From contig CAWDDW010000001.1 of the NCBI GenBank assembly GCA_963801185.1, positions 41,939 to 105,938 on the forward strand: a stretch of 64,000 nucleotides of DNA. Reading direction: 5' to 3'. Under the pieces are notes generated by a model, which had not been told where the DNA came from, did not search any database, and saw only the letters and a list, made by a program, of their open reading frames with translations. This document shows, one piece after another, positions 37,182 to 61,400 of this stretch; the stretch's first letter is position 1, and every line of letters starts with the position of its first letter. A program made the translations under genes and the position numbers. Origin of the DNA: an uncultured Acidimicrobiaceae bacterium (lineage in GTDB: Bacteria; Actinomycetota; Acidimicrobiia; Acidimicrobiales; Bog-793).

Positions 37182-39184
37182 CCGAGGGACGCCTGTGGTG
37201 GTACGCCCACCGTCTCGGGCGCATGTCGCCGGAGGAGGTGGTCTGGAGAGCCCACGACCAGGTCCTGCGCAGGACCTGGTCGAGACGCCAGGTCCTCCCC
37301 TCCTCGCAGCCCCGGAGATCGGTGCGCGTGAAAGGCGCCCCGAAATTCGCCACGCCACTTCCTTCCGGCTGTCGCGACCGTATCCCCGCCGAGGTTCGAG
37401 AAGGACTCGTAGCGGCGGCCGACGAGCTGCTCAAAGGGAGGTGGGAGGTGCTCGGGGTGGTGAGGACGGACCTCGCCGACCCCGACTGGTTCTTTGACCC
37501 GGTCACCGGGCGGAGAGCGGCGTCCGAGAAATACGCCTTCAACATCAACCACCGGTCCGAGGCTGAGGTCGGCAACGTCAAGCAACTGTGGGAGCTGTCA
37601 AGGCTCCAGCACCTGACGGTGCTGGCTGGGGCCTTTTTCGCCAGCGGGGAGGAGGCCTACGCGGAGGCGGTCGCCGCTCAGCTGTCGTCATGGTGGGCCG
37701 AGAATCCTTTCCTCTCGGGCATCCACTGGACGAGCGGCATCGAGCTCGGCGAGCGGCTCATCTCCTGGGTGTGGATCCGGCGCCTTCTCGACGAGTGGCA
37801 AGGAGCGGCCGCGCTGTTCGAAGCGAATGTCGATGCACGAGAGCAGGTGTACTGGCACCAGCAGTACCTCGCCGCCTTCAGGAGCCGGGGCTCGTCCGCC
37901 AACAACCACGTGATCGCGGAGGCCGCCGGGCAGCTCGTCGCGAGCTGCGCCTTCGATTGGTTCGAGGAGAGTGAGAAGTGGCGTGTGAGCGCTGCATCCT
38001 TGCTCGAGGGCGAGCTGTGCCTTAACACCTTCCCGAGCGGGCTCAACCGTGAGCAGGCCTCGGAGTATCACGGATTCGTCATCGAGCTGGCGCTCCTTGC
38101 CGCGGTCGAGTGCGACGCGTGTGGTCATCCGCTCGGCCCTGCTACCTGGAGCTTGCTCGCGACGATGCTGGACTGCGCAGCTGCCGTCGTCGACCAACAG
38201 GGCAGGCCGCCGCGCCAAGGAGACGGCGACGGAGGGCGGGCGTTGCTGGTCGATCCACCGACGGTCGACCGTGAGGCCTCGCTTCTCGCCACAGGGGCAG
38301 CGCTGGTGCAACCGGCGTCGTGGTGGCCAGCGACACGCCCGACCGCCATGAGCGTCGTCGTCGGAGGGCTCAGCGGTCGTGCCAGAGAGATCGAACAGAG
38401 GACGCCGGAACGCCCATCGCACTTCGGAGACGCCGGTCTGACGCTCCTTCGTTCCACGCCACGGCCTGACCAACCGGAGATCTGGTGCCGCTGCGACGGA
38501 GGTCCGCATGGCTACCTGTCGATCGCGGCGCACGCGCACGCCGATGCACTCTCGGTAGAGGTTCGCTACGGGGGAGTGGACATACTCGCTGATCCGGGGA
38601 CCTACTGCTACCACGGTGAGGCGCCTTGGCGCCGCTACTTCCGCTCGACGCTCGCACACAACACCATCGAGCTCGCTGGCGAAGATCAGTCAGTGTCGGG
38701 CGGTCCCTTCCTCTGGCTCTCCTCAGCGCACACGACCGGTGTCGAGGTCCTACCCGACGGCGACGGCCGACCGGTGCGATGGGCCGGGCAGCACGACGGG
38801 TACGAGCGTCTCACGCCTCCCGCTCGACACCATCGCAGTGTGGAGCTCGACGATCTCGGGCGCCGCCTCGACATTGTCGACCGGATCGACAGTGCCGGCA
38901 CGCATGTCATCCGGATGGCGTTCCACCTCGGGCCGGCCGTGCAGGTGGTGCTCGAGGGAGCCGTCGCCGACCTCACCTGGAGCGTCGGCACTGTGAGCGC
39001 ATCGGCGAGATTCGAGCTTCCCGCGGAGCTCGACTGGACTGCTCATCGCGGTGAGTCAGAACCGGTCCTCGGATGGTACTCCGATCGCTTCGGGAGAAAG
39101 GAACCGTCTATCTCCTTGCTCGGGGAGGGTTGCGCGATTCCAGGTTCCAGCGAATTGACCAGCTCTATCACGTTCTCGCCGTAA
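37178..39184 (+). CDS. Heparinase II/III-family (alginate-lyase-like) protein with no signal peptide
   Basis: 668 aa. It has an alpha/alpha-toroid-like N-terminal half ('WELSRLQHL', 'WTSGIELGERLISW', 'NNHVIAEAAG') and a C-terminal 'HAHADALSVEVRYGGVDILADPGTYCYH'-type motif. The start overlaps the upstream stop by 4 nt. The family call is from memory of the motif pattern. Confidence 0.6.
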   Translation: MTEGRLWWYAHRLGRMSPEEVVWRAHDQVLRRTWSRRQVLPSSQPRRSVRVKGAPKFATPLPSGCRDRIPAEVREGLVAAADELLKGRWEVLGVVRTDLADPDWFFDPVTGRRAASEKYAFNINHRSEAEVGNVKQLWELSRLQHLTVLAGAFFASGEEAYAEAVAAQLSSWWAENPFLSGIHWTSGIELGERLISWVWIRRLLDEWQGAAALFEANVDAREQVYWHQQYLAAFRSRGSSANNHVIAEAAGQLVASCAFDWFEESEKWRVSAASLLEGELCLNTFPSGLNREQASEYHGFVIELALLAAVECDACGHPLGPATWSLLATMLDCAAAVVDQQGRPPRQGDGDGGRALLVDPPTVDREASLLATGAALVQPASWWPATRPTAMSVVVGGLSGRAREIEQRTPERPSHFGDAGLTLLRSTPRPDQPEIWCRCDGGPHGYLSIAAHAHADALSVEVRYGGVDILADPGTYCYHGEAPWRRYFRSTLAHNTIELAGEDQSVSGGPFLWLSSAHTTGVEVLPDGDGRPVRWAGQHDGYERLTPPARHHRSVELDDLGRRLDIVDRIDSAGTHVIRMAFHLGPAVQVVLEGAVADLTWSVGTVSASARFELPAELDWTAHRGESEPVLGWYSDRFGRKEPSISLLGEGCAIPGSSELTSSITFSP

Positions 39185-46671: not shown

Positions 46672-46694
46672 GGCGCTACGCGAATGAGTGGGGA
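46672..46694. repeat. IS terminal inverted repeat at the transposase 3' side
   Basis: 'ggcgctacgcgaatgagtgggga'. The transposase stop codon (46676-46678) lies inside it. Confidence 0.8.
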
Positions 46695-47983
46695 GGACTC
46701 GTCCGGATCCTCGGTGGTGAGGGACGCCGCGGCCAGCTGACACCGCCGGTGTGGAGCAACACCCTGAGTCGGTAGTGGCTGAAGGTTCGAAAGCCGTTCC
46801 CGGCCCGCTTCACCTTCTTCACACAGAGGTTCATCGCTTCGGTCGGTCCGTTCGAGGCGCCGGTGCGGTGGTGGTTCAAGATCTCCTCGCGCCATCGCTT
46901 GAGGGTGTGACCGAGCGAGCGGATCTCGGCCACCTCGTCCTCGAGACAGCCGGCGATCGCCTTGTCGAGAAGGAGGGCAGCGGTCTCGAGATCGTCGGTG
47001 AGATAGACGTCGCGGACCGACTCCTTCGCGAGCCAGGCACCGAGGAGCTCGTCGTTCGGGTCGCCCATCCTGAGGCCGAGCATCATCCGGTCGTGGCCTT
47101 TCTCGTCGAGGCGCTCGGCCCCCGACAAGAGCAGCTTCCGGATCTTGTAGAGCGGATCGCCTTTCCTGCCGCGGTGCCCGGTCAGCTCGTTCTGGACCCG
47201 TCGTCGCACCTTGTCGACACAGCGGTTGGCGACCCGGACGACATGGAACGGATCGGCGACCCGCACGACATGGTCAAGGTGCGGGCTGAGCCCCGCCCGG
47301 TAGCTCTCGGCCAGGTCGGTCGCGACGACGCCGATGCCACCGAGCCACGCCGGATCGGCTCCGGCACACCATCTCCGCAGGTCAGCGGCAGTGTTCCCCT
47401 GCAAGATGTCGATCACCTTGTGACGCTCGAGATCGACGAGGCCAGTCGCGTACAGCGTGCGGTGCGTGCGGTTCGCCTTCAAGAAGGAGGTCTCGTCGAC
47501 ACCGAGCGAGGAGACCTCGCCGACGCGGTCCGGGTCGTCGACAAGGGGACGGCCGTGCCGCTCGACGGCCGACATCACGGTCCACCAGCAGACCCCGAGC
47601 TCGTCGGCGAGCCCGCTCACGGGCCGTGCGAGCTCACCGACCTGGCGACAGGCCTCCTCGCCGACGCGTACGGTGAGCACGGCCCGCTCCGGTACGTGCT
47701 CGGAGGTCTCGGTCCAGGTGCGCGTCGGGCACTCGCGCATCCCACAGCGCCAGCGGCGCTTCGACCACACAAGGCGCGTCGGGCGACCGAAGCAGGCGAG
47801 ATCCCGGATCTCGAGGCGCATGCGGTCGTGCGCTTCGGCCTTCACACCACATGCTGTGCACCACGCCGCGACGTCGAGCGTCTCGATCGAGATGACGACT
47901 TCCGACTCGGTCTCGTGCACACCAGTGATGCGGAAGCCGCGCAGTCCAAGGATCGCTTCCGCGAAGCCAGTACCGTCGTGCAT
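46676..47983 (-). CDS. ISL3-family transposase
   Basis: N-terminal zinc-ribbon/HTH region '..CTACGVKAEAHDRMRLEIRDLACFGRPTRLVWSKRRWRC..C', and catalytic core '..LGVDETSF...TLYATGLVDLERHKVIDILQGNTAADLRRW...VATDLAESYRAG...VADPFHVVRVANRCVDKVRRRVQNE'. Confidence 0.9.
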   Translation of the reverse strand: MHDGTGFAEAILGLRGFRITGVHETESEVVISIETLDVAAWCTACGVKAEAHDRMRLEIRDLACFGRPTRLVWSKRRWRCGMRECPTRTWTETSEHVPERAVLTVRVGEEACRQVGELARPVSGLADELGVCWWTVMSAVERHGRPLVDDPDRVGEVSSLGVDETSFLKANRTHRTLYATGLVDLERHKVIDILQGNTAADLRRWCAGADPAWLGGIGVVATDLAESYRAGLSPHLDHVVRVADPFHVVRVANRCVDKVRRRVQNELTGHRGRKGDPLYKIRKLLLSGAERLDEKGHDRMMLGLRMGDPNDELLGAWLAKESVRDVYLTDDLETAALLLDKAIAGCLEDEVAEIRSLGHTLKRWREEILNHHRTGASNGPTEAMNLCVKKVKRAGNGFRTFSHYRLRVLLHTGGVSWPRRPSPPRIRTSPPHSFA

Positions 47984-48072
47984 GTCAGAGGTCCCTCCCG
48001 TTGATGTCGTCGAACAACAGCAACGATGGCGGGGCCTCTGGCCGCGTTGGTGGATGGTCGGTTAGCTCACGA

Positions 48073-48095
48073 TCCCCACTTCAACGCGAAGCGCC
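48073..48095. repeat. IS terminal inverted repeat at the transposase 5' side
   Basis: Plus strand 'tccccacttcaacgcgaagcgcc' is the reverse complement of 'ggcgcttcgcgttgaagtgggga'. Confidence 0.8.
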
Positions 48096-48103
48096 TGTTT
48101 CGC
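48096..48103. repeat. Right copy of the 8-bp target-site duplication TGTTTCGC
   Basis: Identical to 46664-46671. Confidence 0.85.
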
Positions 48104-48178
48104 TGAGCAATCCGCTGCCGGTCGCAGGACCACCACTCAGCCCTGGTGTGCCGGGCGAACTGCGAGGCGTGACAACTG

Positions 48179-49405
48179 TCACGAGGTCAGCGGGTGTTGT
48201 AAATCGGACGTTGAGGCACTGGTCACGAGGAGCGACGCAGCGACTGCTAGGTCCAGGATGTAGGTCGACGCATCGCCTAGCCCCACTTCGGTATACGAGG
48301 CGATTAGGCAATACGTAATAATGAACAAAGCCAGCGCACGCGTGGGACCTCGAGCTCTCGTGAGCGCAATCCCTAGCAGCACCAACAGCGAGAGACCGAC
48401 GAGAATGTCCCCCACCAGCCCTTGGGTCTCGTATACGGCGAGCCAGCTGCTGTCGATCGACAACCCCTGAAAGGAGTCGTTCGAGAGCCCGAAGCCGAAG
48501 AGAGTTTGCGACTTCGTGCGTGGCGCGTTCACGAGTGCGTGCCACACGACCGTACGACCGCTCAAGTCGGTGAAGCTTGTCCCACTCTCTCCCCGCTCGA
48601 ACCAGTGTGAGAGTACGGGTGCAAAGGCTACGGCGACGACTGCACCGGTCACCAGAACCACCGCCAAGGCACGTCGGACCCGGCGACGAGTGAGAAAGAG
48701 ACTCAAGCCAGCGACCAAGATGCCGACCACCATGGCCACGAGGGCGGTCCGAGTGTGGGTGAGGATAAGTATTACCGCGGAGATACTTCCCAGAACGAGC
48801 GCTCGGTTGCGACTAATGAGGTGGCAGAACCACAACACGGTCGCAAGTCCGCCCGCCACGGCCGCATAATGAGCGAGCTGAGGGGAGACCACTGGCCACA
48901 CTGCCCCAACGAGCCGCCCCGACCCAAGCGCCTTTCCCGGCGAGATGACGATGCCAATTGCCGACACGATCACGATACCCATCAAGCATCGAAACTGATT
49001 GCGCAGTATCAGCAAGTCGCTGCGACCCCACCACGGAGTCAACAACCACAAGGTGCTGAGGAAGCCGAGGAGCCGAAATGCCCGGTAGATCGAACCGAAG
49101 TGAAGTGTATCCAGTGTTGAGAGCAACGACAGGGCCGCGAGCAGGGTGAAGATAAAAAGAAACATGTTCGGCCTGATGACGGCGCGGCGATTGACGGATA
49201 GTGCGAGCACCAAGGCCATCCAGAGGGAAGCCTGCGTCATCAGCTTGCCTGCCGTATCGGAGACATTGATCACTGCCAGTCCCGGGACGTACGCGAGCAC
49301 GTTGAAGAACAGCAAGGTCCAGACCGCTCCGATCCTCCTCCGTGCGGAACGCTCGGTCAGGTCCTCCTGGGCCGCTCCAGCGTGCGATTGAGCGAGGGTG
49401 TTCAC
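48179..49405 (-). CDS. O-antigen polymerase/ligase-family membrane protein (Wzy-like)
   Basis: 408 aa with about 10-12 TM helices. 'LILTHTRTALVAMVVGILVAG' is a Wzy_C-type motif. A larger external loop reads 'WFERGESGTSFTDLSGRTVVWHALVN...LFGFGLSN'. GTG start. Confidence 0.65.
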   Translation of the reverse strand: MNTLAQSHAGAAQEDLTERSARRRIGAVWTLLFFNVLAYVPGLAVINVSDTAGKLMTQASLWMALVLALSVNRRAVIRPNMFLFIFTLLAALSLLSTLDTLHFGSIYRAFRLLGFLSTLWLLTPWWGRSDLLILRNQFRCLMGIVIVSAIGIVISPGKALGSGRLVGAVWPVVSPQLAHYAAVAGGLATVLWFCHLISRNRALVLGSISAVILILTHTRTALVAMVVGILVAGLSLFLTRRRVRRALAVVLVTGAVVAVAFAPVLSHWFERGESGTSFTDLSGRTVVWHALVNAPRTKSQTLFGFGLSNDSFQGLSIDSSWLAVYETQGLVGDILVGLSLLVLLGIALTRARGPTRALALFIITYCLIASYTEVGLGDASTYILDLAVAASLLVTSASTSDLQHPLTS

Positions 49406-51018
49406 GACCTGAACACGCTGGCAGGTTCGCCGTGCGCGCCTTGAGCCAGGGACTCATGGCGCATCGCCGATGCATCCTCGGTTGGCCGACCCAAACTCTC
49501 GTCGTCCCTGTCCGCTCCGACGACCAGAACCGAGTCGAGCTGACAACCCGCGGCGCGGATCATCTCCGCCGCAGCGCGCAACTTGACGGCGTTCGATCGT
49601 CCCGTCGACACGACCAGGACGACCTCGCTCGCCCAAGCAGCGAGTTGCGCGGCTCCGAGGGCCGGGTCGAGCGTTGCCAACACGAGTACAAGCTCCACCG
49701 AGCGTGACATCTTGTTCGGTCCGTCGCCGAACGGCGAGTCAAATGGTAAGCCGGCGGCGGTCTTTCCGTCCGCCGAATCCAACAGAGACTCATCAGGGGC
49801 AACCAACACCGAAATCGGCGTAACCGAACGCGGTCCTCTTTCGCCAACGGCTCGGCTTGGAGCATCACGGAGCAAGCGGGCGAGCAGGGCACCCTCAGAG
49901 AGGTCGATCACTCCTACGTGTGTACCCTCGTCCGCCAACCTACTGGCGAGGTATCCGACGAACACCGCTGAGGCCTCTAGGCTGTCGACCGCGACGACAC
50001 CCAACGTCATCCGCCCGCCGGCCGGGCTCAGCTTCTTACGTAAGAATCCCGCCGATAACCGGACAGCTCTGTCGGGCTTGCGAAGTTGCCGCCGAAGCCG
50101 ACGAAGACGCAGCCATCTTGGATTCCTGAATCGATGCACGCTGAGCTCGACAGGGGAATCGAGAACCGTCGCGAACTCTTCGCGCCGACGGACGCGATCT
50201 GACGTGATCGTGGAGACAGCCACCCAACCGAGCCCGAGAATCCAGCCGCCCAGGAGTCCGATGGCTCCGTCCTTCGCAAATGGCTTGAGGTGCGAGTGCG
50301 GGGCAAGCAGGCCCGGCTGCAGGATGGTGCTACCCGCATTGACAGATGCCGCCGAAGAGGCGTTTTGCTGGATCGTCTGGGCCAGCGCGGCCAGCTGGTT
50401 GCTCTCTGCGGCGAGTTCTGCTGCGAGCTCCACCCCCGATGAGGAGCCACGAACTGGACCTGCAGCGGCGATCTCCTTCCGCAAGGTGTCGATCTGCGAC
50501 TGCAGCCCAGCCTCAGCGGCCTGGATCGACCTAGTCACGGCATCGGTCTGCCGCTCGAGCTGATGAGCGCGGACCAGGAGGAAGGCGGTCGCGACAGCGT
50601 TTACCTTGCGCACCGCGCCAGTTGCTGACGGCGCAGTGGCCTTGATTTGAAGCAACTCACTACTCAGCGAGAGCCCGCTGTACTGCGACAGCAGCTGCGC
50701 TGCCGTCTCGTGCCCACCAAGTTGGCGGACGGCCTGATCGGCGACGGCCTCGGTCTGGAGGAGCGTGACATCGTTGAGCATGGCGTCGACCGGGTTTAAC
50801 GCAGGGTTGTGGCTCAAGTACAGCAGGGTCGTAGCCGAGTATCCGAGCGGCACAGCTATCGGTAGCGCTAGACCAACGGCGAGACCGACCGCGGCCGTGA
50901 GGAGCCATAAGCGGCGTCTTCGCCGCAGCTCGCGCACGATTGCCCGGATGCTGATGAGACCCTCCGTGAGCACTGCAGGGGCTTGTGACTCGTCCGAGTC
51001 GCCCTCACCGCGCTGCAT
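49402..51018 (-). CDS. Polysaccharide co-polymerase (Wzz/PCP)-like protein with a degenerate BY-kinase-like C-terminal domain
   Basis: The Wzz-type N-terminus reads 'IRAIVRELRRRRRLWLLTAAVGLAVGLALPIAV'. A coiled-coil periplasmic segment and a second TM 'GAIGLLGGWILGLGWVAVSTI' follow. The C-terminal P-loop-NTPase-like fold ('LGVVAVDSLEASAVFVGYLA..VGVIDLS..LVLVLATLDP..VVLVVSTGRS') lacks GxxxxGK[ST]. I chose ATG 51018. Confidence 0.6.
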   Translation of the reverse strand: MQRGEGDSDESQAPAVLTEGLISIRAIVRELRRRRRLWLLTAAVGLAVGLALPIAVPLGYSATTLLYLSHNPALNPVDAMLNDVTLLQTEAVADQAVRQLGGHETAAQLLSQYSGLSLSSELLQIKATAPSATGAVRKVNAVATAFLLVRAHQLERQTDAVTRSIQAAEAGLQSQIDTLRKEIAAAGPVRGSSSGVELAAELAAESNQLAALAQTIQQNASSAASVNAGSTILQPGLLAPHSHLKPFAKDGAIGLLGGWILGLGWVAVSTITSDRVRRREEFATVLDSPVELSVHRFRNPRWLRLRRLRRQLRKPDRAVRLSAGFLRKKLSPAGGRMTLGVVAVDSLEASAVFVGYLASRLADEGTHVGVIDLSEGALLARLLRDAPSRAVGERGPRSVTPISVLVAPDESLLDSADGKTAAGLPFDSPFGDGPNKMSRSVELVLVLATLDPALGAAQLAAWASEVVLVVSTGRSNAVKLRAAAEMIRAAGCQLDSVLVVGADRDDESLGRPTEDASAMRHESLAQGAHGEPASVFRS

Positions 51019-52089
51019 GTGCTTAGAAGAATTGCCACTCAAGTGTTGCCCCACTTCGGGTCGAGACGCATGACGAGGACTGCAAATTACCGCTCGGATG
51101 CAGGAGCATCGTATCGGGTCCGCCACTTGGACGAGAAGCTCGCCAAGATCGTGCAACGCGCGCTGGCACCGAGTGCCAAGTCTCGCCGACAGCGCGTCGG
51201 GCAGGCTCAAACGATAGGCGAAGCTCCCATGGGCGTGCAGCCCGACGTGGGGGGCCACGTCGCGTCATCTGCCCCACCTTTACGCAAACCGCGCCGGTAA
51301 TCTTCCTCTTGGCGTGCTCTCCCAGTTCTGTAACTGCCGACCCTGAACACCGTCAGCTCCTTACGAGGAGGTGGTGTTATCTCGTCTTTTCTCGGCGCAG
51401 TTCATGTGGCTGGGCGAATGATCAGGGTTATGATGCCGACGTCGAGGCACCTATCGGAAAGATCATCAAGTGCGAGGCGACCCGGAGCACGACAACCCAG
51501 CCGCAACCCACGACCATGCGTCTGGGACACGCGCGGTAGTGGGGCCCGACCGATCAGGTGCCCGCGAGTGGAAGCGCTTACACACCACCTCAACGCGGTG
51601 CTTGGCAATGCGTCGACGGGCTCGCATACACGAACTATTAGAACCTCTTCCCTCGGTTCATGTCGTTCGCGTTGTACGCATGCGATTCCTCGCAGTCGAA
51701 GAGGAGTGTCTCTATCCCTTTATTTTCAACAGCGGTACTTTTCTCTCCGAAGTGCCATCGGTACTCTTCTTGCTTGCCTCCTTCTTAGCTGATCTCTACC
51801 CGGACTCGACCGCCGCCAGGCGCGATCCTCGTCGCCGTCTGGGCTGCCTGCGATGGGCGAAGCACCGCGATGTGTCCGAGGGTACCCCGATGCACTCAAT
51901 CGAGTGCTCGTTGATGCCTGCGAGGCAATCGGGCGTCTCTCGATCGATTCGCCCTCTCTCGGCCCATGTCCCATCTTCGACGCGACGATCATTCGGCTGT
52001 CGGCTGTGAGGCACGAACCGGGGGGGGCGTCGAGTCGAAGGAAGCGACGCGGCAGGATTGAGTTCGGCAACGTCGGGGGTTTGCTCGGA

Positions 52090-53382
52090 ATGACCCCAGA
52101 TGCCACTCGGCGGGCTGGCATCACAATGGCGGACCAATGTGTCGCATCGGCGTCCAACTTTGTGGTCGGCGTGTTTGTTGCCCGCATCGCTGGAGCTGCC
52201 GGGCTCGGCGCCTTCTCGCTCGCCTACGCCTGCTGGATCCTGATGACCAACGTGCACCGATCGCTCATCACCGATCCAATGGCAATCACCAATGACGCTC
52301 GGAAGCAGGAGAGGGAAACTACGCTCAGGCGGGGATTCGCGGCGGAGATAGTTCTTGGCCTTGCCGCGACCGTCGTGTTCGCGATTGCAGGCGCCTTCTT
52401 GTACTTCCTTGGGCAACGCACGTTCGGGGTTGCGATGCTGGCGATGGCGCCGTGGATCGCCTGCCTTGACCTGCAGGACTATTGGCGGTGGATCGGTTTC
52501 ATGCAGGGAACGCCCACCAAGTCGCTTCTCAATGACACAGTCTTCGATTGTGCGCAGGCCATAGCGTTCGCCGCGGTGTTCGTGACTGGCTCTCAGTCGG
52601 TGTTTGCGGTGGTTTCCGCATGGGGTTTTGCGGCGATGGTTGCCACGGTCTACGGCCTGCGACAGTTTGGGGTCCGGCCGAGCCTCAAGGGCGGTCTGTC
52701 GCTGCTGAGAGAGCGGTGGCACATGAGCAAGTGGCTGGCGGGATCAGCCTTGACGGGTTGGGGCGGGTCGCAACTTTATCTCGTCGTCGTCGCAGCGATT
52801 CTGGGGCCGGCAGCTCTTGGCGGTCTGAAGGCAGCACAGAACCTTGTGAGCGGGCCAACCTCGGTCGTCATTCATGCAGGCGGAAGCTTCGGGCTCCCCG
52901 AGGCCGCGCGTGCTCTCGAAGACCGAGGATGGCCGGGTCTACGACGGGTCTCCTGGCTGATCTCAGGCGCAGGCCTCATGAGTATCGGCGTATTCGGGAC
53001 CATCGTCCTCTTCGCTGGCAGAACCCTGCTCGGTGTGATCTACGGTCCGTCCTTCGCACAGTACGAGCCCGCAGCGCAGCTGTTTGCAGCGGCGTTCGTG
53101 ATCACCGGGTTCGGACTTGGGCCTATTCTCGTGTTGAAGGCGACGAAGCGGACCCGGGCACTGATGCACTGGAACGTTGCCACCCTGATTGTTACGTCCC
53201 CGTTGGTGGCGATTTTCGCGATCGCCTGGCAGGTTACCGGAGCGGCTGCCGGACTAGTCGTCAGCGGGCTCTTCTCCCTTGCCCTTCTGCTCTACTACCA
53301 GAGATCCGCCCGCAAGGTGGCGCAAGAGACACCAACCTACCCTGTCACGGGCGCTGACTCAGTCACAGAAATTCGGTCGTAG
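52090..53382 (+). CDS. Wzx-type oligosaccharide flippase (polysaccharide biosynthesis protein, MOP superfamily)
   Basis: About 12 TM helices. The N-terminus 'ADQCVASASNFVVGVFVARIAGAAGLGAFSLAYACW' and 'RERWHMSKWLAGSALTGWGGSQLYLVVVAAILGPAALGGLKAAQNL' are typical of the family. I chose ATG 52090. Confidence 0.72.
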   Translation: MTPDATRRAGITMADQCVASASNFVVGVFVARIAGAAGLGAFSLAYACWILMTNVHRSLITDPMAITNDARKQERETTLRRGFAAEIVLGLAATVVFAIAGAFLYFLGQRTFGVAMLAMAPWIACLDLQDYWRWIGFMQGTPTKSLLNDTVFDCAQAIAFAAVFVTGSQSVFAVVSAWGFAAMVATVYGLRQFGVRPSLKGGLSLLRERWHMSKWLAGSALTGWGGSQLYLVVVAAILGPAALGGLKAAQNLVSGPTSVVIHAGGSFGLPEAARALEDRGWPGLRRVSWLISGAGLMSIGVFGTIVLFAGRTLLGVIYGPSFAQYEPAAQLFAAAFVITGFGLGPILVLKATKRTRALMHWNVATLIVTSPLVAIFAIAWQVTGAAAGLVVSGLFSLALLLYYQRSARKVAQETPTYPVTGADSVTEIRS

Positions 53383-53651
53383 CGCAACCCGCTCGTCACC
53401 ATGGAGACGAGGAGACCCGTTCGTCCTCTTGCTTGAACGACCCACGGAACAGGGCAGGTTCATGTAGGGCGCCACTCCTGGAGCTACCGGCGTTCGGACA
53501 ACCGACGCGGCTGAAGGTGGAACAGAGTGTGAACCGCCCCGATCCGTCTGGACACCCGGACCGTCATGCCCCGAGTATGCTCCGCTGTGCCCCTTGTTCA
53601 CGGTGGGCGTCCTCTGGCGCGTGATCCCGCACCCGAAGTCTGGGAGAACCT

Positions 53652-54842
53652 GTGAGCTCATCTGACAACATCGCTATCCTCCTTTGTCGGAACTGCGAGC
53701 CTGGAGCCGGCTCGGAAGGTGGCGTCGGTTGGCTGTGGGCGAAGGCAGCTACCGAGGTGGCGAGTGTGATTCTGGTGACCCACGCAAATCAGAGGAGCAA
53801 GCTAGACCCGGCTATCGCTGAACTCGGATTGAACATCACTGTGGAATACGTGGAAGACACGCGAGTCGCTCGCGCATTAGGGCGGGGCAATCACCTCGGT
53901 GCAATTGCTTATATTATTTGGCAGGCGCGATCTGGTGCCGTAGTACGGCGTTATGAGCGGTCACACAAGGTGGGAGTGGTTCACCACCTGACTTGGGCCT
54001 CGGACTCGCTACCCTCGGCGCTGTTGGCCTCGAGGGCTCCAATCAGAGTCTGGGGACCGGTCGGCGGCTCAACGAGGACGCCCTTCAGCCTCTACCGCTA
54101 CCTCAGCCTGCGGGGAAAGGTTAGCGAAGTGTCTCGTGACGTCGTCAACGGAACGATGCGCCTTGTCTGGGGCACGCTACTTGACCGCCACGCGACGCTC
54201 GTTGTCGCTCTCAATCATGATGTCGTCGCCCGCTGGAAGGGTGGCCCGACGCCTGTCGTAGTGGCATCTAACACTGCGTTGGAATCCTCCGAACTCGCCT
54301 CCGAAAGCGCAGGCGTGCCAGCATTTGCTCCAGATCGCCGCCGCACGGCGCTATTCGTCGGCCGGTTGATCCCGTGGAAGGGACTCCTTCTAGCGCTGGA
54401 AAGCCTGCGATACGCGCCAGACTGGCACCTCGTGGTCTTCGGCGATGGCTACGAGAGAGCAACGGCGACGGCGAGAGCGCATCGAATGGGTGTCTTGGAC
54501 CGGGTCGACTTTCGGGGCCAAGTCGAGCGTTGCGAGGTCATGTCCGCCTTTCGTGATGCGGACGCGCTCCTGTTCCCTAGCTTCCACGATTCCTCGCCGT
54601 GGACGGTCGGCGAAGCTTCCGCGCTCGGGTGTCCGGTCATCTGTTTGGACATGGGAGGACCACCCCTTCAGGCGGGGCCTAACGGCTACGTGGTGCCCGC
54701 CAAGCCAGGGGCGACGCTCGCCCGGCGGATTGGCCAGCGCCTTCAGAGCCTTGACGGCCGCGGCCAGCCACACGACTCGCTGACCGCCGAGCGGTTGCCT
54801 GACCTTCTCCAGTCTTGGTACAGCGGGTTGCACGGTGACTAA
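53652..54842 (+). CDS. Glycosyltransferase (GT4-like, GT-B fold)
   Basis: 'RRTALFVGRLIPWKGLLLALESL', '..LVVFGDGYER', and 'ADALLFPSFHDSSPWTVGEASALGCPVICLDMGGP'. GTG start preceded by 'gggaga'. Confidence 0.7.
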   Translation: MSSSDNIAILLCRNCEPGAGSEGGVGWLWAKAATEVASVILVTHANQRSKLDPAIAELGLNITVEYVEDTRVARALGRGNHLGAIAYIIWQARSGAVVRRYERSHKVGVVHHLTWASDSLPSALLASRAPIRVWGPVGGSTRTPFSLYRYLSLRGKVSEVSRDVVNGTMRLVWGTLLDRHATLVVALNHDVVARWKGGPTPVVVASNTALESSELASESAGVPAFAPDRRRTALFVGRLIPWKGLLLALESLRYAPDWHLVVFGDGYERATATARAHRMGVLDRVDFRGQVERCEVMSAFRDADALLFPSFHDSSPWTVGEASALGCPVICLDMGGPPLQAGPNGYVVPAKPGATLARRIGQRLQSLDGRGQPHDSLTAERLPDLLQSWYSGLHGD

Positions 54843-55280
54843 GAGATGTCACCTTTGCATGGCAAGGTCAGGCCCTACGCATCAGCACTAGCGACGAGGC
54901 ACGGTCGCAGGAGCATGCGGAGGTGACCCCCTAGAGCGAGATTCCGACTCTGAGGCCGTGCGCTATCGTCGTCCACCGCGACGGGTGCTCGTCGCCCTAC
55001 TCAGCGACCACCGTACGGGCAGCCTGCTCTCACACAAGGGCGGGAGCGGCGAGGGATCCGGGGCCGATTCAATCGTTATATTGTTGAGCCAATGCAGTAT
55101 TCGCTGTCTTTGCCTGGTGCCCATGCCATGAATTGGATCACGGCGATCTCGAGCGACCCACACCGACCTTGCAAGGAATCGTCAAACACGGCGATGCTGC
55201 CGACGACGCGACGAACGGCAGCGTCGATCTCCGGTTGACGCTGCCGGCGGCCGAGACCTTGACCCAAGAAGAGGCGGAGC

Positions 55281-56903
55281 GTGCAAGAGCAAGTTGTAAG
55301 CCTAAAAAACGTTATTCGAATAATCCGCCGGCGGCCACGGATTCTCGTGGCTCTCTCGCTTGTTGGTTGCATGGTCGGTCTGGGGTACGTGCTGCTCGTG
55401 CCCGCGATGTCGTCTGCTACCTCGCTAGTTCTTCTGTCGCCGTCCGGCACAACAATCACGGGTCAACCCACCCAAGACGTGAACACCGACGTCGAGGTTG
55501 TCCTCAGCGAGGCCGTGCTTGGCCCCGCCGCGCGGGCCGCAGGCATCACACAGAGCTACGCCGAGCTGCAACACCAGATCTCCGCGGTAGCTGTAACACC
55601 TGACCTACTCCAGATTACGGCGCTGGCGAAGACACCTCACCAGGCGGAAGCAGTCGCCAACCATGTGGCCGAGAGCTTTGTCCAATATTCAGCTGGCTCC
55701 GCCGTGCTGGCTAACGACGTGGTCTTGGGGCTGGAGAGGGAAGCCTCTGATCTCCAGCACGAGGTCAACGCCACCGAGGCTGAGATCAAGACAACCACGG
55801 CTCGTTTACAGAAGGAAGGGCCGACGTCGTCACAGGGGCAAAGTGATACCAAGCTGCTCAGTGACCTGAGCGGAGCAGCTCAGAGCTACCAGCTGCAGCT
55901 GGACGTCGTCCAGAACGAGATTGCGCAGGACAAGCTGGACAGCGGGAGCGTAGGCGCGACCTCCCAGGTGCTCGAAGCCGCCAACATCGCGACTAGTCCA
56001 TCGCGCCTTCGGATGCCCGAGTACATCGCCCTCGGCATCCTCGGCGGCCTGCTAGTTGGCGCCTTCCTCTCATACGCAACCGGACGCCGTGATCGACGGC
56101 TTCGTAGCCGTGAAGGCATCGCTGCAGCCACGGGGGCCTACGTGTTGCAGTCACTACCGTCTGTACGCCGAAGGAAGGCAGATGACTGGCTCGCGATGTT
56201 CGAGGAGTGGGTGCCCAGTGTCTCCGAAAGGGCTCGGCTCCGCCGATTGCTTGGGGCACTTGGCTTCTCGTTGACTGACGCGCCATTCCAGCACGCCTTG
56301 CCCTCCGCGTCGGGCAGCGAACCATCTCAGGAACTCTTGTCGTGGTCAATTGGCGGGTCGGACATCGATATCATAGTGGTCGCGCTAGCAGGCGATCGGG
56401 CCTCTCTCGGCGTTGCCCCGGAGATCGCCATCTTCGTTGCACTTCAGGGTGTTCCCGTTGAATTCGTGGTCGCGAGCGAAGACGATTCGGTAGAGGCGAT
56501 GAGGTTGGCGTGCGCGGCGCGTGTTCGCAAGCAAGAAGGGCCACGGGAGAGGTTGATCACTCGCGACGCTCCGGCCGATTCCGATCTCGGCAGGCGGACG
56601 ATCGTGACGCTCGTGGTGATTGATCCGTTGAAGGTCGACCGCGCGGATTGGAACAACAGCGGGCCAAACCACGGGACCAGGGCGAATGAGACCGTGTTGG
56701 CTGTGTCGGCTGGCTACGCTCTGCCGGATGAGCTTGCTGGTGTAGCCGAGGTTCTCCTGGGTTATCACTATCCAATCAGCGGCATCGTGGTCGTGGATCC
56801 CGACCCAGCCGACGAGACCACAGGCGGAGCGCCTGAGAGCAGGGCCCGTCATGCTCGAGGCATGGGTATTCCGGAGGAATCGCCCGATAGGCTGCTCGAC
56901 TGA
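55281..56903 (+). CDS. Second PCP/Wzz-like protein with a degenerate kinase-like C-terminal domain (paralogue of 49402..51018)
   Basis: 'LKNVIRIIRRRPRILVALSLVGCMVGLGYVLLVP', a coiled-coil segment ('LQHEVNATEAEIKTTTARLQKE'), and a second TM 'YIALGILGGLLVGAFLSY'. The C-terminal domain ('IDIIVVALAGDRASLGVAPEIAIFVA..IVTLVVIDP..TVLAVSAGY..') has no Walker A lysine. Confidence 0.6.
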   Translation: MQEQVVSLKNVIRIIRRRPRILVALSLVGCMVGLGYVLLVPAMSSATSLVLLSPSGTTITGQPTQDVNTDVEVVLSEAVLGPAARAAGITQSYAELQHQISAVAVTPDLLQITALAKTPHQAEAVANHVAESFVQYSAGSAVLANDVVLGLEREASDLQHEVNATEAEIKTTTARLQKEGPTSSQGQSDTKLLSDLSGAAQSYQLQLDVVQNEIAQDKLDSGSVGATSQVLEAANIATSPSRLRMPEYIALGILGGLLVGAFLSYATGRRDRRLRSREGIAAATGAYVLQSLPSVRRRKADDWLAMFEEWVPSVSERARLRRLLGALGFSLTDAPFQHALPSASGSEPSQELLSWSIGGSDIDIIVVALAGDRASLGVAPEIAIFVALQGVPVEFVVASEDDSVEAMRLACAARVRKQEGPRERLITRDAPADSDLGRRTIVTLVVIDPLKVDRADWNNSGPNHGTRANETVLAVSAGYALPDELAGVAEVLLGYHYPISGIVVVDPDPADETTGGAPESRARHARGMGIPEESPDRLLD

Positions 56904-57095
56904 GTCGACCGATATCACGGAGCCGCAACGCGTGTCACTGCTTTCGACCGGCGTCTTACACTCGCTTACGTTATGGTCGCCGCTTCAACGCGGATAGCGC
57001 TCAAACATCCGCGCGTCGTCTACGTAAAGCCAGTGCTCGCGGTGCAGGAATGCCAGTAGCGCTTGCTCGTGCCAGCCCGATACCATTGCGGGCTG

Positions 57096-57953
57096 ATGGC
57101 AGATCAGCCGCCCTCTCGGCCCCTCGAGACCACTGTGGCCGGTCTCGAATCGCGTGCTCGGACCGTTCTACCAACGAGTGACTCGTTCGTGGTGGGTGCG
57201 TCGTTGCCGCGAGACGACTCCTCGTTCAAGGAGCGCTATCGACGAATCAACGACTCACGAGGCGGCGGGTTCCTCTACTCGAGAGTTGTCAGCGAACGCG
57301 GCGGAATGATCATCGCCGCGATCAGTGAACCGTTGGGTGTGCACCCCACGGTGCTGACCTTCGCGAATCTAGTCTTCGGCGTGACAGGCAGTCTGGTGGT
57401 GACGCTGGGGGCCGGCGCACGTGCCATCTCCGTCACTGGATTTGTCGGACTCGTCCTTTGGCAGCTTGCCTACTGCTTCGACTGCGCGGACGGCCAGCTC
57501 GCGCGGGCGACCGGCAAGACAACGCCAGGTGGTGCCGTCTTGGACCCACTCATCGACGAAGTGGTTCAAACGTCTGTACTCGTTGCCTTGATCAGCGTCA
57601 TTGTTCATTTCAGTCATCCACCAATATGGGTAGTGGTCGTTATCGTAGCGGCATGGTGGATCAACTTCTTCATCTTCCTTCTCAAGACGAACGACGAAAG
57701 TGCGGTACCTTCCCTGCTTCCATCACTCTCCTTTGCCATCCAAAGCGTCAAGCTAATCCGCGATTATGGCTTCCTAGCTCTGGTACTCGGTGCATGGGTG
57801 ACGTTTGTTCCGAAAACGCTTATCTACCCGGTTGTGGCTATCACGGCCATTAACGTGCTACTGTCAGGTGGAACCATGGTGAAGGCAGCTCAAATGAGCT
57901 TTCGAGCGACGGCCAATTATCCCCGCAGCAGTGCCAAAGAACGGGTGCCGTGA
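57096..57953 (+). CDS. CDP-alcohol phosphatidyltransferase-family membrane protein
   Basis: Signature D-x2-D-G-x2-A-R...G-x3-D-x3-D is present as 'CFDCADGQLARATGKTTPGGAVLDPLIDEV'. Several TM helices. I chose ATG 57096. Confidence 0.8.
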   Translation: MADQPPSRPLETTVAGLESRARTVLPTSDSFVVGASLPRDDSSFKERYRRINDSRGGGFLYSRVVSERGGMIIAAISEPLGVHPTVLTFANLVFGVTGSLVVTLGAGARAISVTGFVGLVLWQLAYCFDCADGQLARATGKTTPGGAVLDPLIDEVVQTSVLVALISVIVHFSHPPIWVVVVIVAAWWINFFIFLLKTNDESAVPSLLPSLSFAIQSVKLIRDYGFLALVLGAWVTFVPKTLIYPVVAITAINVLLSGGTMVKAAQMSFRATANYPRSSAKERVP

Positions 57954-58193
57954 ATCACCCTGTCCTCGGCGTCGCCGTCCGCCCACATCGTCGGTCTTTC
58001 GCGACGGGGGAGGGAGATCGAGCTAGGGCTGAAATCGATGATCTTGATGGCCACGCCTACGGAAGGCTACGTAAATGGTGATTCAACCTACGATGACTAA
58101 CTTCAAAGTCGATGTGACGATTCTGAGTTCGCAGAAGGGCTTAGGTCTTCCACCGAGACTATCGTTGGTGTTGGCGAATCCCCCCATGCAGTC

Positions 58194-58589
58194 TTGAATA
58201 ACGCGGAGCGCGATCCCGTGATGCTGGCGGACTCTTCCCGTTGTGAAGAAGGTGACTATCTGTTTAAGTTCGAGGACGAGAAGTTGCTAATGTATGGTAA
58301 GGATCTTCGCGGAGCTGATATATCGGGGGAGTACGTCGGGATAGCGATGATTAGGCGAGAGTTTCAAAATATCTTTCTTGGTAAACTCCAGTCGCTTATT
58401 GATGCGCAGCAGCATTCGCTATGGTGGGAGGATGTTCTCTACTCGCTGATAGCCGAAGAACGAGACGTGTATGTGAAGGATATAACAGGTTTATTTTGGT
58501 CGGAAATAGACTTTATCGAAGACTACAGGAGGATTACTGAATACAGGCATGAGAGCGGTGCCTCACGAGCTTCACGTGTCGGTCCGTAG
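58194..58589 (+). pseudogene. C-terminal fragment of a LicC-like nucleotidyl(cytidylyl)transferase; N-terminal Rossmann/G-x-G-x-R-L part is absent
   Basis: The 131-aa ORF (TTG start in the track) aligns by eye only to the C-terminal half of LicC-type enzymes: 'GEYVGIAMI..', '..HSLWWEDVLYSLIAEERDVYVKDITGLFWSEIDFIEDYRRI'. The frame upstream is closed by TAA at 58098-58100, and no GxGxRL motif is encoded in 57954-58193. The segment is low in GC (26/60 at 58261-58320). Confidence 0.5.
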
Positions 58590-58845
58590 CGATGCCAAGA
58601 TGTTCCAAGGCCGCGCATGGCCGACGGTAGCGCTGGAGTGGCCGGGATCGTGGTCGATAGATAGAGACGTGCCTAGACTGAATGAGCGCGTCCGGGTGGA
58701 CCGGTGCGTGGGACCAGACGAGCGGTGAGGGAGTTTTCGCCGACTGACGGGTGAGGGAGTGCGGGTGAGTGAACTAGAGACGGCCTCGAGTAATGGACGA
58801 GGTGATCTCCGGCGCTTCCTTAGGGAGACGGCGGGGCACGTGAGT

Positions 58846-59796
58846 ATGAGTTTAAATGTGGGGAGACGGTGGTCAAGGGCTGAGCGGCAACCTGAGACAC
58901 CGGTATCGCTCGACAAGCTTTCCCTGAATGCGATCATACCGACCTGGTGCGAGGAGGACATTATCGCTTCAACTGTCGCGAACGCTTTCACGCAGGGTTG
59001 CCAACGCGTCTTCATCGTTGATAATGACAGTCCTGACGGCACAACTGCGGAAGCGAGGAAGGCCGGGGCCGAGATCGCGTGCGTCTACCATACGGAGTAC
59101 TGGCTGGAGTCTCGGAAGAGGGCCGAGATTGTTGAGGTAATGCAGGCTGCGTGGAGAGACAGCGGGGCAGACCACGTTTGGTGGATGCTGTGCGACGCTG
59201 ACGAGTTTCCGCACGGTCCCCAAGGACTCACCATCGCCGAGTACCTCTCAACTCTCGATCGCCGCTTTCGAGTAGTCGGCGCTCGCGTCTTCAATCACTT
59301 CCCGTCGGGTGAACCCGCGAACGTCCCCGGGCGCCATCCTCTGGAGTTTCAACCGCTGTGTCAGGAGGTGAGAGTGGCCTGGTGTTCGCTGCGCCATTGG
59401 AAGCATCCACTCATCCGTTGGGACGCTGACGGCATTCCAATCTGGCCAAAGTTCGGGTTTCACAGCGTCGAGGCGAACGCTCGCGTGATCGAACCGGTTG
59501 AGGGCATCTATCTTCACCACTTTCAGTACCGCGAGCGAGATGCCACCGTGGAGCGACTTCGGAACCTGTGCGGAGCGCGGGGTGAGGAGCCTGCTCGCTC
59601 TTCGGTAATCGACTCATGGGGTCGGGTGGGCTCGGATGCGCAGGCGCGATACGCAAACCTCGAGGATCTCTACGCAGGTCGGTGGACTCAGGTCGAGCGG
59701 CCGACGGTCTGGGGGCGGAAACGGGGTGTCCAACCAAGGCCTTGGAAGGACCAAGTGCCGGCGATCGATGTCGCCGTGGCGAAGTGGTACATCTAG
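58846..59796 (+). CDS. Glycosyltransferase, GT2-like (GT-A fold)
   Basis: 'LNAIIPTWCEEDIIASTVANAFTQGCQRVFIVDNDSPDGT' and the DxD-like 'CDADEF'. ATG 58846 is proposed as the start. The subfamily is uncertain. Confidence 0.6.
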   Translation: MSLNVGRRWSRAERQPETPVSLDKLSLNAIIPTWCEEDIIASTVANAFTQGCQRVFIVDNDSPDGTTAEARKAGAEIACVYHTEYWLESRKRAEIVEVMQAAWRDSGADHVWWMLCDADEFPHGPQGLTIAEYLSTLDRRFRVVGARVFNHFPSGEPANVPGRHPLEFQPLCQEVRVAWCSLRHWKHPLIRWDADGIPIWPKFGFHSVEANARVIEPVEGIYLHHFQYRERDATVERLRNLCGARGEEPARSSVIDSWGRVGSDAQARYANLEDLYAGRWTQVERPTVWGRKRGVQPRPWKDQVPAIDVAVAKWYI

Positions 59797-60117
59797 GTGT
59801 AGGGCGAGTCCCGCATGTGCCTGTTCTCAGCGATCGCTGGTCTTCTCCAGGATGGGATCGGAACTTTCGGCACAGCGGCGACCTCTGACGATGCGCTTCG
59901 CGTGACCCAGATACCTCTCTCCGATTCAAGCAGGCGATCCTCGATCTCTCGTTGTTTGCGTCGATAGGGCTTGTTGGGTCCGGTGGATAGCGCCCGTGCA
60001 GAGAAGTAGGATGACTACTGATGCGAGGGAGCGGAGTGGTCCTGGGCGGCGATTCCGTGGCGGCCCCCGATGCGAAGTCGACAGTTCGGCTACCACTTAC
60101 AACCGGCTCCTTGATTC

Positions 60118-60729
60118 ATGAGAGTTCTCTTGAGTAGCTCACCAGCACGCCGGGACGGATTGACGCTCACACGGCGAAGTGGCTTCTCGCGCCCCGGAAT
60201 TCTCCTCGATCGGGACGGCACGATCATCGTCGACCATGGATACGTCGGCTCGGTCGAACGCGTGGAGTTCATCCAGGGGGCACCGGAAGCGATCGCTGAG
60301 TTCAATCGGGCCAAGATCCCAGTCGCTGTAGTGACGAATCAGGCCGGTGTCGCCCGAGGGTTGTACGGCCTCGACGACGTCGAGCTGGTGCACGACCACA
60401 TCGCCGACCACCTGGCTCAGCACGGGGCGCACGTCGACCTGTTCCTCTACTGTCCGTACCATCCCGACGGGATCGTGGAGGCCTTTGCTCGCTCGAGCGA
60501 GGATCGTAAACCTAGGCCGGGCATGGCCAAGGCTGCGGCTGAGGCGCTCAACCTGGATCTCAGCTCGTCCTGGGTCGTCGGTGATCGACCGGAGGATATA
60601 GGGCTCGCGGCCGCCGTGGGAGCGTCAGCGATCTATATAGGACATGGCGTCGAAACGCGTGCTGGTGTCTGGTCGTTTCCGAGCCTTGCCGCTGCGGCTT
60701 CGTTCATCCTGGAGCGAATCTCGCTATGA
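60118..60729 (+). CDS. gmhB: D-glycero-D-manno-heptose 1,7-bisphosphate phosphatase (HAD-IIIA)
   Basis: 'ILLDRDGTIIVDHGYV', 'VVTNQAGVARG', 'CPYHP..........RKPRPGM', 'SWVVGDRPEDI'. Confidence 0.8.
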   Translation: MRVLLSSSPARRDGLTLTRRSGFSRPGILLDRDGTIIVDHGYVGSVERVEFIQGAPEAIAEFNRAKIPVAVVTNQAGVARGLYGLDDVELVHDHIADHLAQHGAHVDLFLYCPYHPDGIVEAFARSSEDRKPRPGMAKAAAEALNLDLSSSWVVGDRPEDIGLAAAVGASAIYIGHGVETRAGVWSFPSLAAAASFILERISL

Positions 60730-61400
60730 GCTCCCACCGCGATTCCCGGACCCCTGTTCCACCGGCCCTGCGCACGCCACCGAAGTTCCCCATCAGGCGC
60801 TATGACAGCGCGGGCTCGTACCTCGACGAATACATCAAGGAGTCCGCCCGGGCGGCAAGCTCGATCGCACCGGTAGAGCTCGACCGGGCTGCTGCGATCC
60901 TGCTCGAGGCGTACGCGCGCTGTACTGGCGTCTTCTCGTGCGGGAATGGGGGATCGGCGTCGATCGCGAACCACCTTCAGTGCGACCACTTGAAGGGGAT
61001 ACGGACGGAGACGGACCTGTCGCCCCGCGTCGTAAGCCTTAGCAGCAACATCGAGCTCCTGACCGCGATCGCGAATGACATCACCTTCGAAGACGTCTTC
61101 GTATACCAGCTGCAGTCGCAGTCCCGGCCAGGCGACGTGCTCGTCGCCATCTCGTCATCGGGTCGCTCGCCGAACATCGTCCGGGCCCTTGCGTGGGCAC
61201 GCGATCACGACCTCCGCACGATCGCCCTCACCGGCTTCGACGGAGGGGATGCCAAGGCGTTGGCAGAGGTCTCCATCCATGTCGACTGCGCAAACTACGG
61301 CGTCGTCGAGGACATGCACCAGGCCGTCATGCACGCTTTGGCACAGTACATCCGGCAGTCGCGTATGACGGTGGACGTAATCTCGTCAACTACATTCTGA
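60726..61400 (+). CDS. gmhA: Phosphoheptose (sedoheptulose-7-phosphate) isomerase, SIS domain
   Basis: 'FSCGNGGSASIANHLQCD', 'GDVLVAISSSGRSPNIVRAL', 'LTGFDGG', 'EDMHQAVMH'. It overlaps gmhB by 4 nt. Confidence 0.8.
   Translation: MSSHRDSRTPVPPALRTPPKFPIRRYDSAGSYLDEYIKESARAASSIAPVELDRAAAILLEAYARCTGVFSCGNGGSASIANHLQCDHLKGIRTETDLSPRVVSLSSNIELLTAIANDITFEDVFVYQLQSQSRPGDVLVAISSSGRSPNIVRALAWARDHDLRTIALTGFDGGDAKALAEVSIHVDCANYGVVEDMHQAVMHALAQYIRQSRMTVDVISSTTF

Follow-up and report, generated by a model that had tools for sequence, protein, structure and literature searches.

Two co-polymerase genes with kinase-like domains in a polysaccharide gene cluster

We analyzed a 64,000-nucleotide (nt) stretch of DNA from an uncultured Acidimicrobiaceae bacterium (GenBank assembly GCA_963801185.1, contig CAWDDW010000001.1, positions 41,939 to 105,938; hereafter the window), in which two genes of a polysaccharide gene cluster, here named A and B, each encode a Wzz-type polysaccharide co-polymerase (PCP) fused to a C-terminal domain (C-domain) that resembles a bacterial tyrosine kinase (BY-kinase) stripped of its catalytic motifs. 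An earlier note on this DNA, made from the sequence alone, had singled out both open reading frames (ORFs) and ascribed to them a common architecture of two membrane helices, an outer coiled coil and a cytoplasmic domain; the ORFs stand as it gave them, and hydropathy scans together with Pfam and NCBIfam searches bear out the shared architecture. The features of the two genes are listed below with their basis in brackets; "representatives" are the 148 A-family representatives of 50% identity clusters.

49402-51018, minus strand: gene A, A-type co-polymerase with a fused BY-pseudokinase domain, 538 amino acids (aa) (Pfam Wzz, E=6.5e-7; profile; AlphaFold2 and Foldseek)
50833-50913, minus strand: first membrane helix of A, aa 36-62, after a basic RRRRR stretch (hydropathy scan, sequence)
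50206-50268, minus strand: second membrane helix of A, aa 251-271, with the conserved juxtamembrane segment DRVRRREEFATVLDSPVELSV after it (hydropathy scan)
49963-49986, minus strand: degenerate Walker A position of A, DSLEASAV, aa 345-352 (hidden Markov model (HMM) alignment to CapB)
49903-49905, minus strand: Asp372 of A, the retained first Asp of Walker A' (VGVIDLS) (invariant in the A-type alignment; 100% of the representatives)
49663-49671, minus strand: Walker B-like LDP of A, aa 450-452 (Asp in 93% and Pro in 98% of the representatives)
49489-49512, minus strand: C-terminal motif DRDDESLG of A, D-x-x-D-x-S-x-G (Asp and Gly in 100% and Ser in 93% of the representatives)
55281-56903, plus strand: gene B, B-type co-polymerase with a fused, more degenerate BY-pseudokinase domain, 540 aa (weak Wzz and NCBIfam matches; AlphaFold2 and Foldseek; hhalign to A)
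56388-56411, plus strand: degenerate Walker A position of B, AGDRASLG, aa 370-377 (follows strand E95-102 of the AlphaFold2 model)
56619-56627, plus strand: Walker B-like IDP of B, aa 447-449 (Asp448 nearly invariant in the B-type alignment)
56802-56825, plus strand: C-terminal motif DPADETTG of B, D-x-x-D-x-T-x-G (Asp511 and Gly515 invariant in the B-type alignment)

The reading frame of A stays open as far as a GTG at 51258 (618 aa), where one public gene call starts; the 538-aa call is supported by homologue alignments, which begin near the ATG at 51018. Against the Pfam Wzz model (PF02706), A scored 30 bits (cut-off 25.5) and B 18.4 bits, below the cut-off, and B additionally gave partial matches to the NCBIfam chain-length-determinant models TIGR03007 and TIGR01006, which, together with its identity to A, assign an N-terminal Wzz domain containing the first membrane helix to B as well. 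The helices of B lie at about aa 19-46 and at aa 245-268 (hydropathy scan), weak coiled-coil-type Pfam matches fall between the two membrane helices, and in both proteins basic residues are found on the cytoplasmic side of both helices, so that each protein has the two-helix, outer-domain layout of a co-polymerase. Within its family, A is best conserved in the juxtamembrane segment, which aligns to the C-terminal activator peptide of CapA in the CapAB chimera.

Paralogy and predicted BY-kinase fold of the C-terminal domains

BLASTP aligned A and B only over the membrane and outer part (aa 17-314 of A and aa 1-322 of B; 24% identity, E=8e-9), and the C-terminal regions of the two were matched by hhalign (probability 98%, E=1.7e-13, 214 columns), with the B-family C-domain model alone also matching residues 433-517 of A (E=1.4e-9). 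The N-terminal match and the C-domain profile matches together make A and B paralogues over their whole length, divergent as the earlier note had proposed. Among B-type proteins, the closest homologues of B (~440 aa, 54% coverage) were at first candidates for forms without the C-domain and were rejected as such, as they are missing ~70 aa of the outer coiled coil instead. Indeed, many B-type proteins (~405-440 aa; P0024-P0026 and positions 10001-11224 of locus L011) are without these ~70 outer residues that the window's B has, and A-type proteins always retain the outer coiled coil. Most B-type tails are basic and carry a recurring L-P-T-x-L-x-G motif; the tail of the window's B is acidic (IPEESPDRLLD).

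As single sequences searched against Pfam, NCBIfam and PDB sequences, neither C-domain found a match, and 22 A-type homologues scanned against Pfam returned Wzz only. A profile built from 16 A-type C-domains and searched against PDB retrieved the Staphylococcus aureus CapA/CapB chimera first (2VED and 3BFV, E=1.6e-5), followed by CapA2B2, BceF and Soj. The B-family profile had no match among PDB sequences; B is linked to kinases only through A (hhalign) and through structure (Foldseek). When the A or B family profile was compared by hhalign with a single genuine kinase (P0044, an actinobacterial fused PCP with a true BY-kinase domain found among the relatives, with GEGKT, DAPP and a YGYGYGYG tail), the matches were weak and the aligned region was consistent.

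AlphaFold2 models of the C-domains reached a mean predicted local distance difference test score (pLDDT) of 76.7 and a predicted template modeling score (pTM) of 0.76 for A, and 78.4 and 0.78 for B, with the low-confidence parts confined to one insert and the tail. Searching PDB with both models, Foldseek placed CapAB, Wzc and BceF on top (and Etk for B) with a probability of 1.00 and template modeling (TM) scores of 0.5-0.6, compared to 0.23-0.38 for other P-loop nucleoside triphosphatases (NTPases; MeaB, FlhF and SRP). A P-loop NTPase fold of the BY-kinase type, which the earlier note had read from the strand pattern, is thus supported for both predicted C-domains, and for A also by its sequence profile against PDB.

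Loss of the kinase motifs across the family

We compared the positions at which a BY-kinase binds nucleotide and is phosphorylated. The claim that no Walker A motif follows the first strand held up, and the motif is absent family-wide: in the HMM alignment, the segment of A that lies opposite GAGKS of CapB is two residues shorter than a P-loop and has neither Gly nor Lys, and a Walker A after strand beta-1 was found in 0/22 A-type homologues, 0/11 aligned B-type members, 0/148 representatives, and 0/80 A-type and 0/70 B-type metagenomic ORFs. Likewise, no Gx4GK[ST] occurs at all in the 148 A-family representatives, and no GK[ST] in the 11 aligned B-type members. Two kinds of cryptic Walker A were considered and rejected. 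The sole GK[ST] of A (GKT, aa 418-420) falls within an insert that is variable and modeled at low confidence, and even relatives at 59% identity do not keep it; the [AG]x4GK[ST] matches in 7/80 metagenomic A-types never follow beta-1, four being in a VVTAGKS strand-turn and three in variable regions. The VVTAGKS turn is one that we take to correspond to the VVRAGKT segment of genuine kinases.

The other motifs are kept to different degrees. From the Walker A' signature (D-x-D-x-R), A keeps the first Asp only, and B, which reads EFVVASEDDS, has no Asp at this position; Walker B is represented by LATLDP in A and VVIDP in B, with a conserved Asp and Pro whose spacing is unlike that of DTPP. Of the Walker elements, what is left is the first A' Asp plus a Walker B-like LDP in the A family, and only the second of these in B. 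The E-x2-R-x2-R oligomerization motif of helix alpha-2, as read from the alignment to EKFRGIRSNI of CapB, is reduced to its last Arg (GFLRKKL in A, ARLRRLL in B). As the earlier note had stated, there is no C-terminal tyrosine cluster: neither tail contains a Tyr, and the tails of all relatives have 0-1. Both families instead share the motif D-x-x-D-x-[ST]-x-G immediately behind the last strand, the point from which the tyrosine tail of BY-kinases extends. The comparisons which that note had called for thus show C-domains related to BY-kinases and no intact nucleotide-binding site, with Walker A absent from all homologues compared. By these features A and B do not qualify as active BY-kinases; they are BY pseudokinases under the published definition (PMC12004946), having the fold without Walker motifs or tyrosine tail and being associated with a PCP-2 membrane part, here by covalent fusion. 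With the phosphate-binding loop deleted or replaced and the tyrosine cluster absent, the sequences indicate that both domains are almost certainly unable to autophosphorylate, and they probably do not bind nucleotide.

Could these domains simply be functionless remnants of decaying kinases? The lost motifs and a B domain that cannot be detected by sequence against PDB would fit such a view. However, the A-type C-domain profile matched at least 941 representatives of 50% identity clusters among 1.84 billion proteins (E<=0.001), of which 502 reached E<=1e-30, and most members of the family are 500-600 aa long with the domain in the same position; a further homologue search with the C-domain profile yielded mostly fragments, and little was gained. 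Hundreds of diverged members therefore keep a full-length domain with invariant residues (Asp372 and Trp462 in the numbering of A, and the D-x-x-D-x-S-x-G positions in the A family) and a family-specific motif, and both AlphaFold2 models have a confident core. A large, diverged family with invariant positions rules out a decaying relic, and we consider this explanation scarcely credible. The C-domain family matches no Pfam or NCBIfam model.

Another explanation is that the domains serve as targets or partners of a genuine BY-kinase and phosphatase pair encoded elsewhere in the genome, or that they bind nucleotide in a non-canonical way. Fused PCPs with a genuine kinase domain do exist among the relatives (P0044), the A family has kept the Walker A' and Walker B Asp residues, and eukaryotic pseudokinases often pair with active kinases (PMC12004946). 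Yet every Walker-A protein of the window proved to be UvrA, UvrB, CoaE or an ABC ATPase, and tblastn with P0044 found nothing in the window or in 92 fetched related loci, which agrees with the earlier remark that the window has no separate kinase gene; no phosphatase of the low-molecular-weight protein tyrosine phosphatase (LMW-PTP) or PHP family was found by Pfam in the window or in the 10 annotated loci with gene tables. Furthermore, the tails contain no tyrosine cluster, the shortened P-loop without Gly or Lys speaks against nucleotide binding, genuine BY-kinases are uncommon in Actinomycetota (37/168 genomes; PMC4007543), and Myxococcus EcpK functions independently of active kinases (PMC12004946). 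We therefore regard a kinase acting in trans, or an unconventional nucleotide site, as improbable.

A conserved B-A tandem and its interpretation

In four contigs of metagenome-assembled genomes (MAGs) that were chosen through A-type homologues (L005, L008, L009 and L010), a second co-polymerase gene stands directly before the A-type gene, its stop overlapping the A start, and a Wzy gene follows the A-type gene in three of the four; the A-then-Wzy order was seen in L001, L005, L008, L010 and L011. When scored with HMMs of the two C-domain families, all upstream genes were B-type (E=1e-36 to 1e-70) and all downstream genes A-type (E<1e-77). The same order of B, A and Wzy is present in Kribbella sp. 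GL6 (L011; complete genome CP190129.1), and Streptomyces sp. NPDC048172 (L012) carries a more divergent adjacent co-polymerase pair with degenerate C-domains. Scanning metagenomes with an alignment of one A-type subfamily gave 80 loci, and 73 of these have a B-type gene immediately upstream in the same orientation; among the other seven, the sequence upstream is no longer than 212 nt in five, and only L071 and L074 are long enough and without a B-type gene. The B stop and A start overlap by 4 nt (GTGA) in 34 of the 38 loci where the A match begins at residue 1, and the gene immediately before the B-A pair is heparinase II/III-like in 24 of the 27 metagenome loci that could be tested, as well as in L005, L009 and L011. 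In one locus (L037, 1-2322), the end of a B-type gene and an A-type gene lie in a single open frame, which may be a natural B-A fusion or a sequencing artifact.

The arrangement in the window departs from this pattern, with A still overlapping Wzy by 4 nt and B 4 kb away on the opposite strand. The pair has been split by rearrangement in the window and its closest relatives, A and B being nine genes apart in three related MAG assemblies, judging by protein accession numbers. Proteins identical to A and B were found only in metagenome assemblies, their nearest named relatives are Acidimicrobiales MAGs, and a genome scan with a single protein returned one Acidimicrobiales MAG only.

According to Pfam, the cluster in the window has one Wzy, one Wzx, one initiating transferase and two co-polymerases, from which we conclude that both co-polymerases serve the same pathway, and A and B are encoded together with the glycosyltransferases of that cluster. 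Given a dead-kinase fold, a family that conserves it and genes that stand side by side in nearly every related locus examined, we consider it likely that A and B form a kinase-independent co-polymerase pair of one Wzx/Wzy pathway, with pseudokinase domains as the scaffold of a mixed A/B ring. Each protein is comparable to CapA fused to CapB: two helices, a short outer helical domain, a juxtamembrane segment and a BY-kinase-fold domain. Mechanistically, the pseudokinase domains may act as a cytoplasmic oligomerization scaffold, as has been proposed for EcpK and HfsB, that would keep the ring of co-polymerases assembled and link it to the Wzy polymerase with no need for cycles of phosphorylation. 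A-type and B-type subunits would assemble into one mixed ring and not into two separate rings, a proposal made because the gene pair is ancient, nearly always adjacent and translationally coupled; the fixed gene order, the start-stop overlap and the age of the A/B split point to a heteromer. The suggestion of paired action in the earlier note has thereby gained strong comparative support.

The main competing explanation, which we judge unlikely, is that A and B are independent homo-oligomeric co-polymerases that compete for the single Wzy and set two chain-length modes. Two divergent co-polymerases facing one Wzy and one Wzx would be expected under it, and dual Wzz systems with competition for Wzy are established in Gram-negative bacteria (WzzB/FepE and Wzz1/Wzz2; PMC4182512). 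The variable length of the B-type outer domain, with the coiled coil absent in P0024-P0026 and Kribbella, would fit different length settings, and the loci with an A-type gene alone keep this explanation alive. The genes of known dual Wzz systems, however, are usually unlinked and sporadically carried, unlike the pair described here with its fixed order and prevalent 4-nt overlap. This tandem extends to cultured Kribbella, which is distant from the Acidimicrobiales-related source of the window, and a fixed, overlapping tandem is typical of subunits made in fixed proportion.

Several points weigh against the kinase-independent mixed ring that we favor. The AlphaFold2 models were built on shallow alignments (16 sequences for A and 11 for B; mean pLDDT 77-78), and E-values in the Foldseek searches were modest (~1e-5). 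Some ligand or metal binding may persist in the A family, which has not lost the Walker A' Asp or the Walker B Asp-Pro. The 80 metagenome loci represent one A-type subfamily collected through two peptide patterns, a biased sample. A-type genes occur without a B-type gene in L071, L074 and the contig of P0017, so an A-type protein may work alone, and in the window itself the 4-kb separation on opposite strands means that A and B are not co-translated.

More tentatively, and with somewhat less than even expectation of being right, we put forward that many Actinomycetota use an obligate hetero-oligomeric ring of two ancient paralogues (e.g., alternating A and B), whose dead-kinase domains would make up a permanent ring on the cytoplasmic side that is free of phosphorylation and in which the acidic motif D-x-x-D-x-[ST]-x-G would replace the phosphotyrosine tail at the subunit interface. 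If true, such an obligate hetero-ring would constitute a distinct co-polymerase subfamily with its own assembly logic. Inheritance of two different pseudokinase co-polymerases as a coupled pair makes the mixed ring a testable prediction, and experiments are feasible, since the pair is present in cultured Kribbella and a divergent version in cultured Streptomyces.

Gene content and rearrangement around the pair

The window (62-69% G+C) contains polA, rpsA, coaE, uvrB and uvrA and then the polysaccharide gene cluster, which starts with the initiating phosphoglycosyl transferase and extends past the window end; on a Joint Genome Institute (JGI) contig with identical genes, it ends ~1.4 kb beyond the window, after two heptose-activation genes. 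The neighboring features are as follows.

28544-30124, minus strand: initiating phosphoglycosyl transferase, the first gene of the cluster (Pfam Bac_transf, E=9e-66)
37178-39184, plus strand: heparinase II/III-like gene (Pfam)
46676-47983, minus strand: ISL3 transposase beside Wzy, where the cluster is rearranged (Pfam DDE_Tnp_ISL3, E=1e-51)
48179-49405, minus strand: Wzy-type polymerase, with a GTG start overlapping the A stop by 4 nt (Pfam Wzy_C and ORF coordinates)
51853-53382, plus strand: Wzx-type flippase, the only one of the cluster (Pfam Polysacc_synt_3)

The ISL3 transposase sits between a beta-helix gene and Wzy. The JGI contig with identical neighboring genes stops exactly at this transposase, a syntenic Acidimicrobiales locus (L001) is without the insertion, and the gene order around A is unlike that in relatives. 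Positions 48000-60000 of the window have a G+C fraction of 0.58-0.63, compared to 0.65-0.69 elsewhere, with genes below the rest of the window in G+C at third codon positions (GC3), a sign that the variable half of the polysaccharide locus may have been exchanged.

A block conserved among actinobacteria (window 30388-39184; L011 1381-9925; L012; L006; L009) comprises genes for a UDP-glucose dehydrogenase, a GT4 glycosyltransferase, an AsnB-like amidotransferase, an ADH/GFO oxidoreductase and the heparinase II/III-like protein. In relatives, the B-A-Wzy genes follow directly on this block, which places the lyase-like protein beside the chain-length machinery. The cluster also encodes a CDP-alcohol phosphatidyltransferase and a heptose pathway (57063-57953 and 60118-61400; L002 15735-17422), the SIS isomerase and HAD phosphatase of the latter lying in the window and the nucleotidyltransferase and GHMP kinase just beyond; these genes hint at a heptose-containing and possibly phosphodiester-linked polymer.

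Outside the cluster, uvrA (24792-28140, plus strand) is apparently split into two overlapping frames, with the first Walker A in ORF 24792-26381 and the DNA-binding and second ATPase parts in ORF 25966-28140, owing to either a frameshift or an assembly error. A further ORF of 538 aa with high GC3 (14159-15775, plus strand) is flanked by an oligopeptide-transporter operon and a mannosyltransferase-like gene; it had no Pfam match and no match to the A or B C-domain models.

Comparison with known systems

The best structural and sequence match to A and B is CapA/CapB of S. aureus (PDB 3BFV, 2VED and 4JLV). CapA has a short outer domain, as in other single-membrane bacteria, and its C-terminal activator peptide is the part that aligns with the A/B juxtamembrane segment; CapB, in contrast, has kinase activity, all three Walker motifs (A, A' and B) and a tyrosine cluster, and it is a polypeptide of its own that acts together with the CapC phosphatase. 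Wzc and Etk of Escherichia coli (PCP-2a; PDB 3LA6, 7NHR and 3CIO) share with A and B the fused architecture and the same cytoplasmic fold, and the octameric ring that Wzc forms through its kinase domains is the model for the proposed A/B scaffold. Wzc differs in being catalytically active, in cycling with the Wzb phosphatase, in its large periplasmic domain that contacts Wza and in being a homo-octamer.

BY pseudokinases have been published as the stand-alone EcpK and HfsB and as fused proteobacterial variants (PMC12004946), and as PssP2 (PMC4182512). In EcpK/EpsV of Myxococcus xanthus and HfsB/HfsA of Caulobacter crescentus, the pseudokinase binds the cytoplasmic end of the co-polymerase; EcpK and HfsB have been proposed as phosphorylation-independent scaffolds that Wzx/Wzy-dependent synthesis requires (PMC12004946). 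They resemble A and B in having a BY-kinase fold without Walker motifs or tyrosine tail, but they are separate polypeptides, one per pathway, whereas A and B are fused and present as two paralogous fusions per pathway.

Fused PCP-2 proteins with a BY-pseudokinase domain have been listed from Proteobacteria (SMc01795, Mlr8439 and VV1_2305; Cuthbertson et al. 2009, as cited in PMC12004946). PssP2 of Rhizobium leguminosarum is devoid of kinase motifs, influences chain length and has PssP and the polymerase PssT as interaction partners (PMC4182512). Like A and B, these four combine a two-helix co-polymerase and a kinase-like domain without Walker motifs or tyrosine cluster in one polypeptide, and PssP2 further resembles them in coexisting with a second co-polymerase, PssP. 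However, the proteobacterial proteins operate in double-membrane hosts, where they have large periplasmic domains and work alongside an exporter in the outer membrane; PssP still has its Walker motifs, and pssP2 is not part of the Pss-I cluster, to which pssP belongs. No sequence relation of A and B to these proteins was seen, though no search aimed at one was made. In A and B, both partners are pseudokinases, the outer domains are short, the hosts are Actinomycetota, and the genes of the family form a fixed overlapping tandem.

A recent Actinoplanes study refers to similar proteins just as Wzz (PMC13390465), and the literature searched, with incomplete coverage, contained no description of the actinobacterial family or its paired arrangement. 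Current models of capsule and exopolysaccharide synthesis rest on tyrosine phosphorylation cycles that open and close the co-polymerase ring. Pseudokinase versions have been recognized only recently, in Gram-negative bacteria, and the present finding extends the idea to the single-membrane Actinomycetota. Overall, the general concept of BY pseudokinases is known, whereas the actinobacterial form, fused to its co-polymerase and paired with a second such fusion, is new.

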